In this document: piece by piece, positions 13,835 through 52,797 of the stretch
Layout of the letters: each line of letters begins with the position of its first letter
Numbering within the stretch: the stretch's first letter is position 1
IMG/VR virus record: IMGVR_UViG_3300024272_000072
DNA length: 64,000 bases
Direction: 5' to 3' (one strand)
Origin: an uncultured virus (IMG/VR IMGVR_UViG_3300024272_000072)
Lineage: Duplodnaviria > Heunggongvirae > Uroviricota > Caudoviricetes
Translations under genes and position numbers: made by a program
The notes under the pieces: generated by a model
Told to the model about the DNA's origin: nothing
Databases searched by the model: none
The model's input: only the letters and a program-made list of their open reading frames with translations

Positions 13835-14838
13835 TGATCAGATACGATATAAAAGCATATACAAAAGAAGGGACATATATTACAACTATTAATCCAAATG
13901 TTGTTATGAATGACATATCTTTTTCTTCAAACGTAAACGGGGGGCTTGGACAATTGAATTTAAACCTTGCGTTGAGTTTTGGGGATACAACGTTTCATGG
14001 TGGGGAAATAATAAAAGTGATACTTTATAATGAAAGATACAAGCAAGGAAAACAGATTTATATGTGATTTGTTTCGCAGATTTCAAGGGTGTATGATACA
14101 AACAAAGGATATATAAAACTGGTTTGTTTGTGAATTGCGAGTTTATTAACAAGCGTATTATTTACATGATCATATAGTGGAACGGCGGAAATAATATTGA
14201 ATGCAATTATTGCGGAGTTCAACAGCAATTACGCTTGAAGTTTAATTTCAGTTGGTGGAATTGATGAATACGAAGAAAATATAAATGTGGAATTTAAAGA
14301 TTGAACAAGTTGCCAAAAAGCAATCGAGCAAGTAAACGAAATCGCCAATTATTACCGGTTTATAAATGCAGAGTGAAAATTTTATTTCAGAAAAAAGGGA
14401 ACACAAACCGAGCACATCATGGCGAATAAACAAGAAGTTGAAAGCATGAATTTAAATTACAGCATTGAATCAATTGTAAACAGAATATTTGTCGCAAGAA
14501 AAGACGGAACAGTAAAAATGTATGAAGATGATATTTCGCAAAGTTTGTATGGAATAAAAGAAGAATACAGCAACCAGCAAAGCATAGTGGACGCAACAAC
14601 GCAAGACGAATTTGGAAATAATTATATCGCCCAATATTCAAATCCGAAGAATGCAAGCACGGTGGTTGTAAATAGCGAATACGATATTGAAAAAATTGAA
14701 CCGTGAGACACAATAACAATTGTAAATTCAGAATATGAAATAAAGAATTTAACAATTGAAAAAATAAATTATTCTCCAAGTAAAGTTACGTTGACTTTGG
14801 AAGAAAACGAAAGTTTATGGAGTGTAATCAGTGAATAA
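13834..14838 (+). CDS. Baseplate hub/Tal-like protein
   Basis: Synteny; SQSLYGIKE, IEPGDTITI. Confidence 0.6.
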
Positions 14839-14873
14839 AAGCCAAATTATTTTACATCTTATTATATTATATC

Positions 14874-17366
14874 ATGGTATTTGTGAAATTCAGAAACACC
14901 AATAATGCAAGTTCAACACTTATTGCCGATATATCAGCAAGTGCAACAGCATTATTAATTAAAGATTGAGATCAATCTTTATTTCCAACTCATTTTCCAT
15001 TTCTTTTGACTTTGGAACATTTGGATTCGGAAGAAAATGTTATTTTAAGGGAAATCGTAAAAGTAATATGAAGTAATCAAAATTCATTTACAGTTGAAAG
15101 AAGTGCGGGGGTTTGTGTTCAAGACGATACAGCTTCAAACAGAAGCCAAGACAACACAGCACATGCATTTTATTCATGAGATAAAGTTTCACTTTATTGG
15201 ACAGCCGAACAAGTAAGGGATATTCAAGAAAGGTTGGAAACAAGCGTAAACGATCCAGCAATTGCGGACGAATACGATAATACAGCAACATATGCAGTAT
15301 GAGATATTGTAATGTATAAAGGGGACAGATATTCATGCTCAACAGCCGTTTCAACACCGGAAGAATTTGACAGCACAAAATGGACAAAAGTTGGTGTTCA
15401 ATGCAACCTTGATTACATGCAACAAGAAATTGATTATTTAATGGCTTGAAGTGGTGCAACATCAGACCACCTTGAAGACCGTGGGCTTGTTTGAACGAAT
15501 TATGATATAAACACGGATAAATTATTCAGACAATTAACGCCAACATACGAAAACGCAACAAATGCAGTAAATATTGGAGATATAAACGACGATAAAGAAA
15601 TACACATTCAAAGACAAGGAAGTGGGACACAAAGCAATAAATTAAAGTTAAAAGTTAAATTGTGATGATCACCAACAACAAGTTTAATTGTGGAAGTTAG
15701 AAAATGAATCAGCGTAATTGATAGCGACACATGAGAAAGTTATTGGTATGGTGATTCAAATAATATAATAGCAACCGCAACTTTACCATATACAGATTTT
15801 GATTCAAACCGAAAAGACGTTGAAATTACATTAAATAATTCTTTTGGTTGAACCGAAGGGGAATTATTGGATATTGTATTATATCAAACAAGCCACACAG
15901 TAAATGCAAGCAATTATTATATTATTGGAATTGATTCAACACAAAAAAGCGACGCTTTTCAATGTATAAGAGTAAACGGAACAACTTATAAAAGAACACA
16001 TTTAATGCCGTATTGTATTTCGGATTGATTCGCAAGTATAATGATGGAACGTGTAACAACAAGCGGTGCATATGCATTGCCAAGAGTTCAAGCAACACTT
16101 GGAGAAATTACAAGGGTTACAACATACGGAAGACACATTGACGGAATTTGGCTTGACCACAATTCAGAAAGCACAATTGAATATATATCGTCAAGATATT
16201 TAACAATGACAATGTATATTGACGAAAGCAAATCTGATCCAAGCCAAATGATAACATATGGGGACGACGCAACAGATATGACAGCCGGAAGTTCAGATTG
16301 GGACGATTTCTTCGGTTATAGACCTTGTTTGTTGGACGCAAGCGGAAACGTTTATAAATATTTGAATCCATTGGATTATACAAAAGATATTGATTGAAAC
16401 GATGTTTCAAATTACGTAACTGGAACAGACGGAACATATAACGTAATGGTTGAATTTCCAAGGCGTGGTTTCAAAATGAGTAAATCATGAAGTATAATTA
16501 CAGTTTCAATAACAGACAATCCAGCAGATTACGCAAATGGTTTCCATTATTACGCACATACAAGGTGACCAGTTGATTTGAGCCAAGATGATACAAGTGC
16601 AAGTGAAATCCAATATGCAAAGGATTATTTCTATTTGGGAGCATATAAATGATATGTGCAAGATTCAAAATTAAGAAGTATAAGCGGAAAAATACCAACA
16701 ACAACGATTTATATTTATGACGCAAGAACAAACGCAAGAGCCAATTGAACCGGTTACGAACAAAGCGGATTTTATCAATTGGAAATCAGAAAAGCATATT
16801 ACGCAATGAAATATAAAAACATGAATTCGCAAGCAACACTTGGACGCGGATTTGTGGATAAAACAAGCGGTTGGAGTTCTACAAGTTGCCAAACATGAGC
16901 AACAAATTCAAGGTGATTGGATTATGGTGTAACAAGCACGGGAACGGACGTTTCTGTAAATAGAGTAAAATTTGCATGAATAGAAGATCCACGGGGAAAT
17001 GTTTGGGAATGGATAGATTGAATAAATTTAAACAATTACCATGCATATGCTTCATGCGACGCAGATAACTGGGTGCATGATTCAACAGCAACTCCATATT
17101 ATGATATTTGAACATTACCAAGCACATCAGATTCTTATATTAAAACAGTGCTTTGAACAACAAAAGGTTGATTCTTACCAGCAAGCGTCGGTGGAAGCGA
17201 TTCAACTTATTATTGCGATAATTACCGAGTTAATTCCGGTGCTCGCGTCGTGCTATCCGGTGCGTCTTGGAGTGATGCGTCGAAAGCAGGGGCTTTTGTG
17301 ATGGATCTGAGTTATACTTCTTCGGATCGTTACGCTATTTTCGGGGCTCGCTTGATGTTCCTTTAA
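14874..17366 (+). CDS. Tail fibre/receptor-binding protein; DGR target (C-type-lectin/FGE-like C-terminus)
   Basis: 830-aa frame; CBM5/12-like YDNTATYAVGDIVMYKG..KW; GIEDPWGNVWEWIDG; ends GASW..AGAF...FGARLMFL containing the VR. Confidence 0.85.
17235..17356 (+). repeat. DGR variable repeat (VR), phage A
   Basis: Aligns ungapped to 17631-17752; 23 mismatches counted, all opposite TR adenines. Confidence 0.95.
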
Positions 17367-17381
17367 TAGGAACATCAAGTG
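17349..17381. promoter_or_regulatory. Hairpin/cruciform at the VR 3' end (candidate DGR target-recognition element)
   Basis: CTTGATGTTCCT-ttaat-AGGAACATCAAG perfect 12-bp stem with the stop codon in the loop. Confidence 0.6.
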
Positions 17382-17409
17382 AACGTTTTAATTCACTGGT
17401 TCAAACAAA

Positions 17410-17577
17410 ATGGAAATCAAAATAATAATAAATACGGTTGAAGAAAAAGACGAAGAATTGATACTTTGACCGGATTGAATCCGAAGGGAAAGTAAAAAGC
17501 CAAAAATTGAAATAGTTGTAAACCAAAACAAAAAAGAAGAAAATAAAATCGAAAAAATTAATATTGATGAATTATAA
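17410..17577 (+). CDS. Small 55-aa protein in the avd position of the DGR
   Basis: MEIKIIINT...; positional homolog MEIKITIET... at 51175-51324. Confidence 0.6.
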
Positions 17578-17590
17578 AAAATATATTCTT

Positions 17591-17900
17591 GGGTAACGGA
17601 GAAACCGATATAAAATGAAGCAAAAATTTCAACAGTACTCACGTCGTGAAATCCAGTGCGAATTGGAATAATACGTCGAAAGCAGGGGCTTTTGTGATGA
17701 ATCTGAATAATACTTCTTCGAATCGTAACACTAATATCGGGGCTCACTTAATTTCCAAAACCATGTCAAGCTTGTTTTATTCCAAAAGAGTAAAGCGAGC
17801 AAATTAAAACGGCTCCGTTACCTTGGCTCTTGCCAAAACATAAAAACTTTTAAAGCCGTGTTAGTAGGTAATCCGAACGCTTGGTGACATGGAACATCAA
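17591..17900 (+). ncRNA. DGR template RNA (TR 17631-17752 plus structured spacer)
   Basis: AAT/AAC-rich TR; 5' GGTAACGGAG pairs with CTCCGTTACC (17813-17822); TGGCTCTTGCCAAAACATA shared with phage B. Confidence 0.85.
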
Positions 17901-17906
17901 ATAAAA

Positions 17907-18992
17907 ATGAAAACACACTGAAACTTATTTGAAAAAATAACAGATATTGAAAATATCAAAATTGCACATTATAACGCAAGAAAAGACAAAACATTTTATG
18001 GATCAGTAAGGGAAGTTGACAATAATTTGGAGAAAGTTGCCAAAGAAATTCAAGAAATGCTTGTAAATGAAACATACGAAATAAAAGAAAGTGATTATTC
18101 AACGGAATTTATAAACGATAAATGAAAAGAAAGAAGGTTGGATAAATTACAATATAATCCACATCGTATTGTTCAACGGGACATAACGCAAGCGTTAGAG
18201 CCGATATTCATGGAAGTATTTTGTAATTTCACATGTGCAAGTTTAAAAAATCGTGGTATACATTACGCATATAAATTGATGAAAAGATACATGAAAGATA
18301 GGGATTGAACGAAATATTGCTTGAAAATAGATATTAAAAAATTCTACCCGTCAATTGATCATGATATATTGAAACAATTATTAAGAAGAAAAATAAAAGA
18401 TAAAAAAGTATTAAGGTTATTGGATAAAACAATTGAAAGTGCTCCATGATGAAAGGGTGTGCCAATTTGAAGTTATTTATCGCAATATCTCGCCAATTAT
18501 TACCTTGCATATTTCGACCACCGGTTGAAAGAGAAATTACATGTAAAATATGTTGTAAGGTATATGGATGATATTGTGATTTTTAGTAATAGCAAAGAAT
18601 GGTTGCATGAAATATTGGGGAAAATTCAAGAATATTTGCATGAAAATTTAAATTTACAAGTGAAATGAAATTATCAAATATTTCCAACGGAGAAAAGGGG
18701 CGTGGATTTTGTGGGTTATAGGTTCTTTTATGATTACACACTTTTGAGAAAAAAGACAGCAACAAGAATGAAAAGGAAATTAAAACGAATCAAGGAACAT
18801 AAAACAGACAAAAACGAATTATTAAATTATTCGGAATGGTGCAGTATTAACAGTTATGTTGGGCGAATTATTTATTGCGACCATTACAGATTGTTTGAAA
18901 AATATATTGATCCAGTAAGAAAAAGTTTGAATAGATATTATTTTTATGTGATTTGTGAACAAAAACGAGAAAAAATTGAAAAGGTATTATAA
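17907..18992 (+). CDS. DGR reverse transcriptase
   Basis: YCLKIDIKKFYPSIDH, GVPIGSYLSQYLANYYL, YVVRYMDD, GVDFVGY, SYVGW. Confidence 0.95.
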
Positions 18993-31207: not shown

Positions 31208-31850
31208 TTGTAAAAGTGATTCCAAGTAAAATTGCAAATGAATTCGTAAAAAAGCACCATTATTCATGAAAGGTTGTGCCAAATTCACAGTTGCATTTCG
31301 GGTGCTTCTTAAATGGAATCTTGGGGGGGTTCTCTCTTATTGACCAAGCACAGATAAAAGCAAATTAATTGGGTTGGTGGAGTGAACCGAACGAAACGAA
31401 TTTATCGAATTAAACCGCATGGCTTTCAGTGATGTATTGCCAAGAAATAGTGAATCAAGGTGCATTGCAATAACAATAAGAATGATAAAAAAGCAAGCAC
31501 CGCAAATAAAACGAATAATAAGCTTTGCGGACGGTTGCCAATGTGGAGATTGAACAATATATCGTGCAAGTGGGTTTGAATTAACACAAATAAACCAAAA
31601 CAGATGATTAAGGGTTGATGAAAATGGTAAAGTTTACAGCCAAGTAACATTCTCCGCCCATAAACCAAACGAAATGGATAAATTCAGAAAAATGGAAAAA
31701 ATTGACGGCTTCATGTTGAGATATATAAAATTATTAAAACCAAACTTAAAAAGAAATTATGAAATAATCCCATATTCAGAAATAGACAATTATGGTGCGT
31801 GAATGTATAAAGGGGAAAAGGTAACAAGAAAAGAAAGACACACAAAATAA
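31186..31850 (+). pseudogene. mom: Mom-like (GNAT) adenine-modification enzyme, frameshifted at a G7 tract
   Basis: KHHYSGK..LHFGCF; after adding one G at 31323-31329: ELNRMAFSDVLPRNSESRCI..WIISFADGCQCGDGTIYRASGF; as assembled it stops at 31366-31368. Confidence 0.75.
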
Positions 31851-32187: not shown

Positions 32188-32207
32188 TTGGTAACGCATA
32201 AATAAAA

Positions 32208-47505: not shown

Positions 47506-47796
47506 ATGGCGATAAATGACTGAAATTTCACAACGATTTGTCCGTTAGCATATACAGACATCGAAGTTCACTATTGCAAAGGTTGATGATTTATGACTTG
47601 CCGACAATGAGTTGATAATCTATGAAATCAGCTTCAATGATGAGAAGTGCGTTTGTTCAATGACAACCCAACAGACGTTCAAGCACCATTGATTTGATGA
47701 TATGAATTCGACCACCGAGAATTCACAGATTCAAATTGATGTCGTCAATGCGTTTCTGACAACCCTATTTCTTTACTTACTTGTAGAACTTCATAA
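47506..47796 (+). CDS. Small Cys-containing tail-region protein
   Basis: Open frame in the recoded code. Confidence 0.5.
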
Positions 47797-49475
47797 TGAC
47801 TACATATTGTTTAGACCCAAATTCGACGTGGTTTGCGGTATATACTTTGAACACGTGAACAATGCCGACAAAAAATGTTGTGAGTTCACAAATCACAGCA
47901 AATCTGAACACAACTGCAACGTCTATCACAATCACAAGTTGAGAATGAGCGTTGTTCACAGCTTGAATGATTGCAACAATCGAACAAATAAATTCTGAAT
48001 GAAAAGCAACTGCAAGAGAAGTTGTTTTGATTTCAAACGTGAATTCAAACACGCTGACAATCACAAGATGATATGAGCAATGTGTGATGAATGATACAGC
48101 AACGCCAAAAGTTCTTTGAAATACAGCACAAAGCTTCACAAGTTGAGCAAAAATTTCAGTTTATGTTTCAAAAGCTTTATTGAATTGAGTTCAAACAAGA
48201 ATCAGTCAAATCAATGCACCTTGCAATACGTGTGTATATAATGAAGCAATGGCTGTCAATGATTGTGTATTGAATAATTGCAACGACCGACGAGACAAAC
48301 TATTGAAAACAAAAGCTTGTTGTTGCTACAATGACAAGTGATTTTGAAGTTGATGTGATTGAGATTGCACAATGTCTTGAAACGTTTTTCTTTGTGCTTC
48401 AAGAGAATATGAATTCAACAATCTGACAATTCAATCGTGAGCGTTAGTCAGATTTGAATGACAATGAGTGCCTACGATTAGAGTGAAAAGATGTTTCTGT
48501 AATTTGTGAACGATAGATTTGAGATGATGAACATTCGTCTGATGTTGTTCAAAAACAGACCCATATTCAAATATGTGAGTGTGAAACAATGCTGATTCAA
48601 CAGCATACAATTCAATGTGTTTCTGATGTTGATGATCGTGAAAATGATGATGTAATTGATGAAACGCAACGACTTGATGTTGATGAAATTGATGAAACGC
48701 ACAGAACTGATGTGCAAGCGTGCCAGCAACTTGTGCCGATTGATATAATTGATGAAATTGAGCAGAATGAGAATCTTGCCCAAGAAATTGACGACAATGT
48801 TGAAGTGGTGGTTGATGATGATGATACTACACTTGAAACTGATGAAACTGATGATATTGAAGCAGTTGAAGTGCGTTAGACAATTATTCAATGGACTGAT
48901 GAAACTGATGAAACTGATGAAATGGTTGAATCTGGTGAAAATGATGAGACTGATGACCTAATGGAAGCTGATATGCTTCTTGATGTGCGTGAGATTGATG
49001 AAACTGATATATTTGATGAAACTGATGAAGTTCATCTTGATGACGTGATTGTATGTCGTATTGACACGCTTGAACTTGATGAAACTGAATCATTCAATGA
49101 TGAAAATGATGAGAAAGCAACAAAGCAATGTCAACAAGATGATGACAATGATGAAATGCAATCAACAATATGTATTGATTCAGATTGTATGCTTGCGAAG
49201 TATTCAACAATATGATTTGTTCGAAATGATGACAATGATGAGCTTGATGATGTAATTGTATGCTAAGTTCATATACAGCTTGATGATGAAATTGATGATG
49301 TTGAGCAAATTGATGAAAAGTGTTCATTTGATATTTCAGAGATATTACACAATGATGTGTTGATGTGAGCTGATGAAGTTGATGAGCTTGATGAAGTGCA
49401 AGTTGAAGTTGAAACAGCTGATGTCCGTGAGCAAATTGAAGTGATTGATGTTATATGATTTGCAAAATTATGTAA
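47796..49475 (+). CDS. Gly/Cys-rich tail fibre or adhesin with GGxGGx repeats
   Basis: 559-aa frame only if TGA=Gly; second copy of the anchor domain, then many TGA-TGA-NNN repeats. Confidence 0.75.
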
Positions 49476-49498: not shown

Positions 49499-51163
49499 AT
49501 GGCGAATGCGTGATGTATAAATGCAATCTGATATGATTGATGTTATATCAGAACATTGCAGAATCTTGATAGTTCTGATATTTGAACTGGTGTTGAATAT
49601 ACAGCACCAAACCCACTATGAGACAGAAATTTCGACTATATCAAATACACAGATAAATGTTGAAATACTTGTTGCTTGACGTGAGAAAATGAAATCAACA
49701 TAATCACAACAAATTGAGTTCTGAAAGATTTGAATCTGACAAGCAATCAAGACAAAATCATAATCACACGAACTGATTTATTTTGAAGCAACCGAGCAAA
49801 AACAGTCGTGAGATATTCAACATCGTGATACCCTTCAAGCAAAACAGATTGAACGCTTGTTGTTGAAGAAACAACGAAAAATCAATATTCTTCAACTTGA
49901 TACAATCTAACTGTTTCTGATAGTTGAACATATTATTTTTCAGCGTTCGCACTTGATTCAGATTGAAATGTAATTTGAGCAGCACAAAGCAACATTGCTG
50001 TATCTTTGTCAAAAGTATTGACTTTCACATTGAATCAAACACAATCAGTACCTTGAAGTATGATTACAGCGATTTCTGATGACGCAATCAATATGACACA
50101 GCAAGAAGTGATTGATTTCATTTGAGCATACCCAGTCTTACTTGACAATTCTTGAAACGAATACAAAAAGCTAAACCCTTTGAATTTCCAACAATTTGAA
50201 GATTGAACAGACGCAAGTTCATATACAGCTTCAACATCATACGATGTGATGATAAAATTTCCAAGAAGATGATACAAAATCAGCACAACGAACAATATCA
50301 CAACATTCACATTGACTGATAAACAGAATGACCCAGAATATTGCTACGCACCATTTCAAAGACTTTCAAGCTGAACATTATGAAACAGCAATGCAGTATA
50401 TACAAATGCGTCAGCTTTCTATCTTTGAGCATATAAATGATACGCAAATTCAAATATTTTGAGAAGTCGATACAACAAAACGCCAACAGCTTCACAAACA
50501 ATTTGAACATTCTCTTGATACGCAAGAAATCATTGAAATCTGCGATGAATCACAGAATTTATGCAAGAATTCTATCTTGAATTGTGTTTTATGGCGATAT
50601 ACAAAACAACAGACGCACAAAGTTCAATTTGACAATGATATGTATGATGAAGTTCAGCACCAACATCGTGAACAATGACATACAATAAATGAATGACATA
50701 TTGAACAAGTTCAACGACACAATGTATGAAATTCTTATGAATAGAAAATCGATATTGATGAATTTGGGAGTGGGTGAACTGACGATGACAGACTTCTGCG
50801 TGAGTTCATATTTCAATACCTACAACAACGTGAGACAACAGAACTTCGACATATAGTTATACGCCTACTTGATACACAACAGTTTGAAGCATATCGCCAA
50901 CATCTTGAAGTTATATCACGAAAGTATTATGACACACGTATTGATGATTCACGCCAACAACAACTTGATGAAGTGAAACGACATACTTCACAGATTACTC
51001 TCGGCGGGCTTCGGGTTCTCGTGTGGCGGTATTCGGTGGTGCGTGGGGTGACGGTGCGAGATGTGGTGCTTTCTGTTGGTATTTGATTGGTGCTTCGTCG
51101 AATTCTTACTCTACTTTCGGTGCTCGCTTGATGTTCTTGCCGAATTGAGATTTATCTGTATAA
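49499..51163 (+). CDS. DGR target receptor-binding protein, phage B
   Basis: DVMIKFPRRGY, FYLGAYKG, GIENWYGGIWEW; C-terminal VR. Confidence 0.85.
50990..51136 (+). repeat. DGR variable repeat, phage B
   Basis: Ungapped match to 51387-51533; 31 mismatches up to 51127, all at TR adenines. Confidence 0.95.
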
Positions 51164-51174
51164 TCAAAAACAAA

Positions 51175-51324
51175 ATGGAAATCAAAATCACAATTGAAAC
51201 AATACCAAAAGAAAAAATATATGAAATGACAGAAGATTGAATGAAAGAATCTGAAAACGAAAAAGTCGAAATGACAATCAAAGAATGAGATGATTGAGAA
51301 ATCATCATCGAAAAAGATGAATAA
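51175..51324 (+). CDS. Small acidic 49-aa protein in the avd position
   Basis: Positional and N-terminal homolog of 17410-17577. Confidence 0.6.
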
Positions 51325-51330
51325 AAATAT

Positions 51331-51686
51331 GGGTATTAGATACTGATATTAGAAATTCCACGTTTGTGCCAAAATCTAAAAGTGAAAAAAATTACACTCA
51401 GCAGAATTCAAGTTCTCGTGTAGCGAAATTCAGTGGTAAATGGAATAACAGTGCGAAATGTGGTGCTTTCTATTGGAATTTGAATAATACTTCGTCGAAT
51501 TCTAACTCTAATATCGGTGCTCACTCAATGTTCAAAAAATTCTTGATATGGAATATGATGTTTCACCGACATCATATTTCGAAATTAAAGCTCATATCTG
51601 ATACCCTGGCTCTTGCCAAAACATAGAAACGTTTTATTTGGAGTCGTGCAAGTAAGAAATGAAAACTCGACCGTAAAGAACATCAA
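51331..51686 (+). ncRNA. DGR template RNA (TR 51387-51533 plus spacer), phage B
   Basis: GGGTATTAGATA pairs with TATCTGATACCC (51595-51606); hairpin 51550-51580; TGGCTCTTGCCAAAACATA. Confidence 0.85.
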
Positions 51687-51693
51687 CAAAAAA

Positions 51694-52797
51694 ATGAAAA
51701 CTTATGACAATTTATGGAATAAAATTATTGATAAAAACAACATATTGAATGCACACTACAACGCAAAAAAAGACAAATCGCATTATCAAGAAGTCAAGAT
51801 GGTCGAATCAAATCTTGACTTTTTTATAAATGAAATACACGAAATGCTGAAAAACAAAACATATATCATTGAAGACATTGACTATTCAACGTCTGTGATA
51901 AATGACAGCTGAAAAGAAAGAGAATTGCGAAAATTGAACTACTACCCACACAGAATCATACAACGAGCAATTATGCTACAATTAGAGCCAATTTTTATGG
52001 AAGTATTATGCAATCACGTGTGTGCAAGTCTGAAAAAAAGATGAATTCATCACGCATTCAAATTGACGCAAAAATACTTGCAAGATGAATGACACACAAC
52101 ATATTGTCTGAAAATCGATGTGAGAAAATTCTACCCAAGCATAGACCACGAAATATTGAAGCAATTATTGAGAAGAAAAATCAAAGACAAAGATGTGCTT
52201 GAAATTCTTGATATGATTATTGACAGCTACCCTTGAACAAAATGAGTGCCAATTTGAAGCTATCTTTCACAGTATCTTGCGAATTATTATCTTGCATATT
52301 TCGACCACCGAATGAAAGAAGAAGCGAAATGCAAATACACAGTCAGATATATGGACGACATCATCGTTCTGAATGAAAGCAAAACACGACTTCACGAAAC
52401 ATTAGACAAAATCAGAGAAGAACTTTCAGATTTGAAACTTGAAATCAAATGAAACTATCAGATTTTTCCAGTCGATAAAAGATGAATTGATTTTGTTTGA
52501 TATAGATTTTTTAGAAATTTCACATTGTTGAGAAACTGAACAAAAAAGAAAATGAAGAAAAGATTGAAAGAAATCAAAGATGAAAAAGCTGACAAACACA
52601 AGCTTTTGAATTACAATGAACGGTGCAGTATAAACAGCTACGTTTGACGAATGTTGAGTTGTAATCATTACAGATTATTTATGAAATACATTTTGCCATT
52701 GATTCCAAGTCTTGACAGATATTATTTTTTTGTTTTATCACATCGCAACGAGAAAAAATTGAAAAAATATCACGAAAAATTGATGAGTAAGATATAA
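51694..52797 (+). CDS. DGR reverse transcriptase
   Basis: YCLKIDVRKFYPSIDH, GVPIGSYLSQ, VRYMDD, GIDFVGY. Confidence 0.95.

Follow-up and report, generated by a model that had tools for sequence, protein, structure and literature searches.

The diversity-generating retroelement (DGR) of BPP-1 is the closest described counterpart of the elements considered here. Its complementary DNA (cDNA) is primed from A56 of the spacer (Sp) on G117 of the template repeat (TR) (Handa 2018, PMC6182149), and a cryo-electron microscopy preprint assigns the template:primer duplex to TR117–129 with Sp47–56, with seven canonical and three non-standard pairs (10.1101/2023.10.23.563531). The three non-standard pairs of this duplex are tolerated, and only three of the seven pairs are needed (PMC6182149; 10.1101/2023.10.23.563531). 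In BPP-1, pairing between the primer and the initiation of mutagenic homing (IMH) element has been proposed to set the directionality of homing, after which the primer would be processed by RNase H and Pol I (Naorem 2017, PMC5703328). The present analysis concerns a 64,000-nucleotide (nt) stretch of DNA from an uncultured virus (IMG/VR record IMGVR_UViG_3300024272_000072), hereafter the window, which holds two DGR cassettes, A and B. Each has, at the 3′ end of the spacer between TR and the reverse transcriptase (RT) gene, a short segment complementary to the end of the variable repeat (VR), which is probably the counterpart of the BPP-1 primer.

Complementarity between the spacer end and VR

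The spacer end of this DGR family carries complementarity at a conserved position, is biased towards VR and covaries with it, and the same pattern is found in BPP-1. In A, GGAACATCAA (17891–17900) is the exact reverse complement of the VR end TTGATGTTCC (17352–17361), and in B, AAGAACATCAA (51676–51686) is that of the VR end TTGATGTTCTT (51128–51138). The letters and coordinates of both matches had been given correctly in a preliminary description of this DNA, which set VR apart from TR in this respect. The TR ends indeed pair less well: the A segment forms 10 pairs with VR versus 4 + 4 pairs with a bulge for TR, and the B segment forms 11 pairs with VR versus six contiguous pairs for TR. The C/T difference between the two VRs that the same description called mirrored in the spacers is likewise present, TTCC in A and TTCT in B being matched by GGAA and AGAA, respectively.

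A 10–11 nt match in A/T-rich DNA at one single locus is within chance and not significant. The same 2.5-kb regions contain further perfect inverted repeats of 10–11 nt (in A, I21 and I23; in B, I22 and I25), and the 9-mer shared by the two segments occurs six times in the window versus 2.6 expected, a number attained by 6 of 100 shuffles. Recurrence of the match at the same position in relatives, on the other hand, is significant. A survey for complementarity between spacer and IMH and for covariation, which had been put forward as a check, has been carried out on 242 loci, comprising the two cassettes of the window and 240 fetched loci of RT relatives (80 viral contigs, 80 metagenome contigs, and 80 contigs from genomes of many phyla); RT B as the sole query against viral contigs gave no relatives. 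The N-terminus of RT was located in 240 loci. An adenine-biased TR/VR pair is present in 198 of the 242; the others have no such pair (26), short upstream DNA (16) or no located RT N-terminus (2). The 198 pairs reduce to 163 unique combinations and, at 80% identity, to 101 clusters. In every one of the 198 loci VR lies upstream of TR, and VR, TR and RT are co-oriented, with a median spacer length of 154 nt.

To locate the complement, the full spacer was compared with the final 40 nt of VR or TR, and exact complements of at least 6 nt were binned by spacer position and repeat column and set against shuffles. Among the 101 clusters, segments whose end lies 0–29 nt ahead of the RT start pair with VR columns −10 to −6 in 63 cases (3.5 expected) and with TR columns −10 to −1 in 68 (11.4 expected); no comparable pile-up of VR or TR complements occurs elsewhere in the spacer. 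The distance from the segment end to the RT start codon has a median of 13 nt (interquartile range 6–17). Of 86 representatives, 59 have a segment with A as its last letter, and in 66 the TR letter that follows is C or G. The segment is a conserved functional element.

Most relatives have a hybrid segment, in which the 5′ part is complementary to the TR flank, a stretch missing from VR, and the last two or three letters pair with VR and not with TR. In the extreme cases, A, B and L088, the VR complement runs on for 10–12 nt. The earlier claim that the spacer complements VR rather than TR thus holds for these three and gives way, in most relatives, to the hybrid with the TR flank. Pairing of the segment with the TR flank is itself maintained by covariation among relatives. 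As a separate observation, a second segment resembling a VR-end complement lies in the last 30 nt before the RT ATG in L054, L068, L073, L077–L079, L116, L214 and L215; in L077, a count by hand gives agreement with VR at 14 of 17 letters and with TR at 9 of 17.

The bias toward VR was determined at columns where TR and VR differ, over the 163 combinations. Where TR has A, the spacer follows VR at 188 columns, TR at 18 and neither at 1. The VR fraction at these columns is 0.91, compared with 0.48 for shuffled spacer ends and 0.27 for a sense-strand control, and a composition artefact is rejected by these two controls. The bias is also seen when the register is set free of VR, by an exact complement of at least 6 nt to TR columns −4 to +13 only, which is feasible in 63 of the 101 representatives versus about 24 after shuffling: at differing positions in the next eight columns, the spacer follows VR at 98, TR at 15 and neither at 68, and 52 representatives favor VR versus three that favor TR. 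Separate exact-match registers for TR and VR were dropped, because the columns shared between them make their agreement uninformative.

The columns immediately past the TR-paired core were analyzed in the 57 representatives with enough letters, with 1000 spacer permutations as reference. The spacer letter agrees with VR in 45 of 57 at the first column (T 30, A 8, G 6, C 1; permuted mean 22.6) and in 44 of 57 at the second (G 21, T 16, A 4, C 3; permuted mean 17.9), counts that 0 of 1000 permutations attain in either case. Agreement declines to 37 of 57 at the third column (permuted mean 28.0; attained by 3 of 1000), 23 of 57 at the fourth (15.3; 8 of 1000) and 14 of 57 at the fifth (11.5; 226 of 1000). 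Covariation is visible where TR is constant at AA: VR is mostly GT in these loci, TT in L021, L095, L107 and L127, and AT in L209, and the spacer mirrors each. VR and spacer therefore covary while TR stays constant, as the proposed check had anticipated.

VR alleles, which vary at 108 of 151 TR-adenine columns upstream, vary at only 1 of 20 such columns under the segment and are invariant over the approximately 12 nt right upstream of it; four VR alleles share the TR of A. Near the repeat end (the last ~25 nt), across about 12 nt upstream of the segment, every VR allele holds a fixed G or T where TR keeps A, synonymous sites included: the TR codon gtA, for one, is gtG throughout the VR alleles. 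In L021 the spacer mirrors a synonymous change of VR (gtT).

Judged from motif matches, the spacers of this DGR family are assigned to the Rfam RT-17 type. RT-17 RNA (RF03020) scores above threshold in 14 of 20 related loci, every match ending just before the RT start, and in A the spacer-end segment falls inside the unpaired 3′ tail of the RT-17 model. In the minimum-free-energy fold of 17725–17906, the TR 3′ end (17738–17754) pairs with 17801–17817 around a 13-bp hairpin (z = −4.6). A primer in the middle of the spacer, as in BPP-1, was also considered: A contains AAGCGAGC (17793–17800), a complement of GCTCGCTT in VR, and CCCGCCG is present in some relatives. This candidate was rejected as chance or local stems, as mid-spacer complements are at the level of shuffles in the 101 representatives (5.24 versus 5.37 in the GC-rich zone and 5.65 versus 5.46 for the TR end, with outliers in 6 of 101 each).

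Possible role in priming and target choice

The 10–16 nt at the spacer 3′ end are, on balance, probably the counterpart of BPP-1 Sp47–56, that is, the primer strand of a template:primer duplex. By analogy with BPP-1, the segment would be held on the RNA at the TR 3′ end via the last TR letters and the TR flank, and the last paired nucleotide, usually A opposite a U of TR, would prime cDNA synthesis, with the following TR letter (mostly C or G) as template. The last two or three primer letters (up to 10–11 in A and B) would mismatch TR, mostly opposite TR adenines, but complement VR. Because these letters mismatch TR yet complement VR, the resulting RNA–cDNA chimera would be complementary to VR across its junction, and the VR end (IMH) would be a better annealing partner for it than the TR end (IMH*). 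We infer that the segment may prime cDNA synthesis and that its pairing with VR DNA would decide target choice. The suggestion that the RNA primer acts as a guide had been made for this DNA; it is consistent with a conserved, VR-biased and covarying complement and with the BPP-1 pattern, but is already contained in Naorem 2017 (PMC5703328). The primer-guide model, then, is already published for BPP-1, gains comparative support here and is not proven. The invariant VR end would fit, only qualitatively, the coconversion boundary that is reported upstream of the cDNA start in BPP-1 (Naorem 2017, PMC5703328).

Several results weigh against identifying the segment as a primer that guides homing. 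At differing columns where TR is not A, the spacer follows VR at 29, TR at 45 and neither at 0 (163 combinations). The relatives are not independent, so that binomial p-values overstate the case, and the sample amounts to about seven distinct sequence contexts plus within-context switches. Duplex energies of the segments are ordinary relative to shuffles, with z near zero, in RNAduplex calculations that concern single loci and are noisy owing to large loops. The 8-bp stem CCATGTCA/TGACATGG, which had been proposed to bring the A segment next to the TR 3′ end, has both of its arms in the sequence, but is left unpaired in the predicted minimum-free-energy fold, where the pairing of the TR end with 17801–17817 competes with the spacer end. 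Invariance of the VR alleles is not confined to the columns under the segment but reaches some 12 nt further upstream, so that the transfer boundary and the proposed priming site are at different places. One of five alleles, L170, has TR-like letters under the spacer-complementary columns, unlike L086, L171, L182 and L184, which suggests occasional transfer or recombination across this zone. RNA architecture differs from that of BPP-1, in which the primer, at Sp47–56 of a 140-nt spacer, lies 84 nt from the spacer end. In 66 open reading frames (ORFs) of the window scanned with Pfam (8 at E ≤ 0.01 and 58 at E ≤ 1e-4), there is no family match to an Avd (or HRDC) accessory protein, although small or divergent proteins could escape such a scan. 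Finally, contigs from public runs over 17200–18100 contain no joints; they cover the region in part (17419–17874 and 17921–18100) and are uninformative on priming and expression.

The same pattern could be produced by copying, if the last primer letters entered the product; information would then flow from spacer to VR at each homing, and the match would not guide the target. The near-invariance of VR under the segment, synonymous gtG included, would be expected from copying, and the gtT of L021 would be mirrored in the spacer without the need for a double mutation. However, the invariant zone extends to the ~12 nt upstream, where the spacer has no VR match (the fourth and fifth columns are near chance), and the BPP-1 model has RNase H and Pol I remove the RNA primer (Naorem 2017, PMC5703328). 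Marker transfer from the spacer is not found in the available portions of the BPP-1 literature, and copying is regarded as unlikely. The segment could instead be a by-product of pairing with TR RNA, its only required partner, if spacer, TR and VR were all once identical and TR drifted, mostly to A, with the mismatches tolerated. At the first two mismatched columns, TR indeed mostly has A (36 of 57 and 35 of 57), A makes up 40% of the + strand of the window, and tolerance of mismatches is known from the BPP-1 duplex described above. Such drift is nevertheless quite unlikely to account for the data: VR and spacer change together (GT, TT, AT) while TR remains AA, the matches involve all four letters, and no permuted spacer attains the observed count. 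Moreover, compensatory changes preserve the pairing with the TR flank, whereas the mismatches by the proposed priming end are not repaired towards TR (0 of 57 at the first column, by construction, and 17 of 57 at the second).

Control of RT translation was also weighed, in which pairing of the segment with the VR or TR end on a read-through transcript would hide or expose the RT start. The short distance between the segment and the start codon, which is only 6–7 nt in A and B, and the common orientation of VR, TR and RT in all loci with a pair would suit such control. It leaves the preference for the VR letter at TR-adenine columns unexplained, many relatives have a separate purine-rich stretch between the segment and the ATG, and the BPP-1 equivalent, far from the spacer end, is a proven primer; as an explanation of the complementarity, translation control is very unlikely, and the 3′-terminal segment may also affect RT translation. 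That the matches arose by chance in A/T-rich DNA would be in line with the other perfect 10–11 nt inverted repeats nearby and with duplex z-scores near zero, but can be discounted almost entirely in view of the excess at one position across the 101 clusters (63 versus 3.5) and the permutations (0 of 1000).

If the segment does serve as the primer, a broader proposal can be made, though only tentatively: the last two to four primer letters might form a short evolvable address that pairs with VR and not with TR across distant clades (the RT-17 type and BPP-1). Were this doubtful proposal true, TR would escape targeting via adenines at those columns, a mismatch from which an adenine-tolerant RT can still prime, and retrohoming should be redirected if these letters and the target end are changed jointly; as an alternative, each round would write the primer letters into VR.

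The two cassettes and the phages that carry them

Cassettes A and B are DGRs, because their TR/VR differences are of the adenine-only type, their RTs match RVT_1 and there is 30% identity to the BPP-1 RT (bRT). The TR/VR repeat (family D1 in each) spans 118 nt at 83% identity in A, with 20 of 20 mismatches at TR adenines, and 143 nt at 78% identity in B, with 30 of 31. RT A is 30% identical to bRT over 333 amino acids (aa; E = 3e-40), and 63% identical to RT B. The order is the same in both cassettes: target gene with VR, short gap, TR, spacer of about 155 nt, and RT (Table 1). The VR of A stops 5 nt ahead of the stop codon of the target gene. In both cassettes the gap between VR and TR is filled by a small ORF of 50–55 aa, at 17410–17577 in A and about 51176–51324 in B; that of A has no Pfam match.

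Table 1. Coordinates of the DGR features of the window.
Feature	Position	Strand	Details
Cassette A target gene	14817..17366	+	849 aa, code 25; VR at 3′ end; follows tape-measure and Dit genes
VR of A	17239..17361	+	17239–17356 aligns with TR; last 10 nt (17352–17361) complement spacer end
Hairpin at VR end of A	17348..17382	+	inverted repeat I10, 17348–17362 / 17368–17382; 15-nt arms, 93% complementary, 5-nt loop
TR of A	17635..17756	+	3′ end TTAATTTCC at 17748–17756
TR-flank arm CCATGTCA	17761..17768	+	8-nt complement of TGACATGG at 17885–17892
Rfam RT-17 RNA (RF03020) match in A	17819..17904	+	47.0 bits versus gathering score 40.4
Spacer-end segment of A	17885..17900	+	17885–17892 pairs with TR flank; 17891–17900 exact VR-end complement; 6 nt before RT ATG
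DGR reverse transcriptase A	17907..18992	+	361 aa, TGA = Gly; Pfam RVT_1 E = 9.7e-24
Cassette B target gene	49499..51163	+	554 aa, code 25
VR of B	50994..51138	+	3′ end 51128–51138 complementary to spacer end
TR of B	51391..51534	+	3′ end TCAATGTTCA at 51525–51534
Weak RT-17-like match in B spacer	51602..51668	+	25.4 bits, E = 0.017; below gathering score 40.4
Spacer-end segment of B	51676..51686	+	exact 11-nt VR-end complement (pair I17); 7 nt before RT ATG
DGR reverse transcriptase B	51694..52797	+	367 aa, TGA = Gly; Pfam RVT_1 E = 1.1e-23

The window consists of two syntenic temperate siphovirus-type phage genomes, also designated A and B, in tandem, the second of which begins near 32200. 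A Pfam scan of ORFs called with table 25 identifies in each phage terminase, portal, MuF, protease, capsid, tail tube, tape measure and Dit genes, and after Dit, a long tail protein (the DGR target), the reverse transcriptase, lysis genes including a holin, and an integrase. Both phages are recoded with TGA as glycine, as seen in the RT motif G-V-P-I-TGA-S-Y and at position 5 of RT A, a TGA in place of the G of standard-code relatives. Among the relatives, the TGA = Gly code is found only in L001–L004, and the remaining loci use the standard code. In phage B, a glycine-rich ORF of 559 aa (47796–49475, +) directly preceding the DGR target has 121 TGA codons under table 25 and no Pfam match. Phage A encodes a Mom-family protein (PF25680, E = 1.9e-33; 31266–31847, +) beside ParB-N and HNH genes.

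Comparison with BPP-1 and other described DGR elements

Other described DGR elements touch on the two cassettes at several points. A stem-loop or cruciform downstream of VR (Guo 2011, PMC3240598) was found in 127 of 372 DGRs according to the available text of Wu 2018 (PMC5758913). As far as the available descriptions go, A resembles these DGRs in having an inverted repeat at its VR end and differs in that the VR end itself serves as the 5′ arm, with a near-exact copy of the spacer-end segment as the 3′ arm, so that VR could pair with either; B has no VR-end hairpin in the inverted-repeat listing of the region. The available text of Wu 2018 reports IMH and IMH* in nearly all DGRs and does not mention the primer or spacer, and that of the Handa preprint (10.1101/2023.10.23.563531) surveys the Avd-binding stem-loop and the cPRT stop, not primer–VR pairing. 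In the literature searched, supplements being outside the search, the statement on primer–IMH pairing was found only in Naorem 2017, and no survey of this pairing across a DGR family was found. Papers of 2025–2026, in their available parts, describe DGR integration into VR with sparing of TR as incompletely understood.

RT-17 is one of the motifs RT-1 to RT-19 of Weinberg 2017 (PMC5737381), of which, in the available text, only RT-10 is tied to a DGR (that of BPP-1) and a DGR or retron role of the others is speculative. The motif matches in A and in the 14 relatives lie directly upstream of RT genes, as described there. Going beyond that text as available, RT-17 is placed here between TR and RT, with the TR/VR-complementary segment as its unpaired 3′ tail. 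An orphan Rfam motif thereby gains a location and a likely role.

The comparison with BPP-1 is the closest. In the BPP-1 sequence record, Sp47–56 is TAGGTGGTCA, which forms nine Watson–Crick pairs and one G–T pair with VR118–127 (TGACCACCTG), versus six Watson–Crick pairs, one G–T pair and three mismatches with TR118–127 (TGCCCATCAC); the count for TR computed here agrees with the preprint (10.1101/2023.10.23.563531). This preference for VR has been reported before (Naorem 2017, PMC5703328). BPP-1 and this family have in common that the TR 3′ end is paired with a spacer segment, that the letters of this segment which mismatch TR match VR instead, and that the paired stretch ends in A opposite U, the next template letter being G in BPP-1 and G or C in the family. 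Unlike the BPP-1 primer, the segment in this family lies at the very 3′ end of a spacer of ~155 nt, 0–29 nt before the RT start. The TR–VR differences under the primer are mostly adenines here, whereas four of five in BPP-1 are not adenines; the RTs are only 30% identical, and no Avd is recognized among the window ORFs scanned. The survey pinpoints the exact two or three primer letters that would be relevant to homing. That about 100 sequence clusters from a distant DGR clade show the same VR bias, together with covariation, provides comparative support for Naorem 2017, in a family that is set apart from BPP-1 by the lack of a recognizable Avd, by adenine-type TR differences and by a 3′-terminal segment in an RT-17 spacer.

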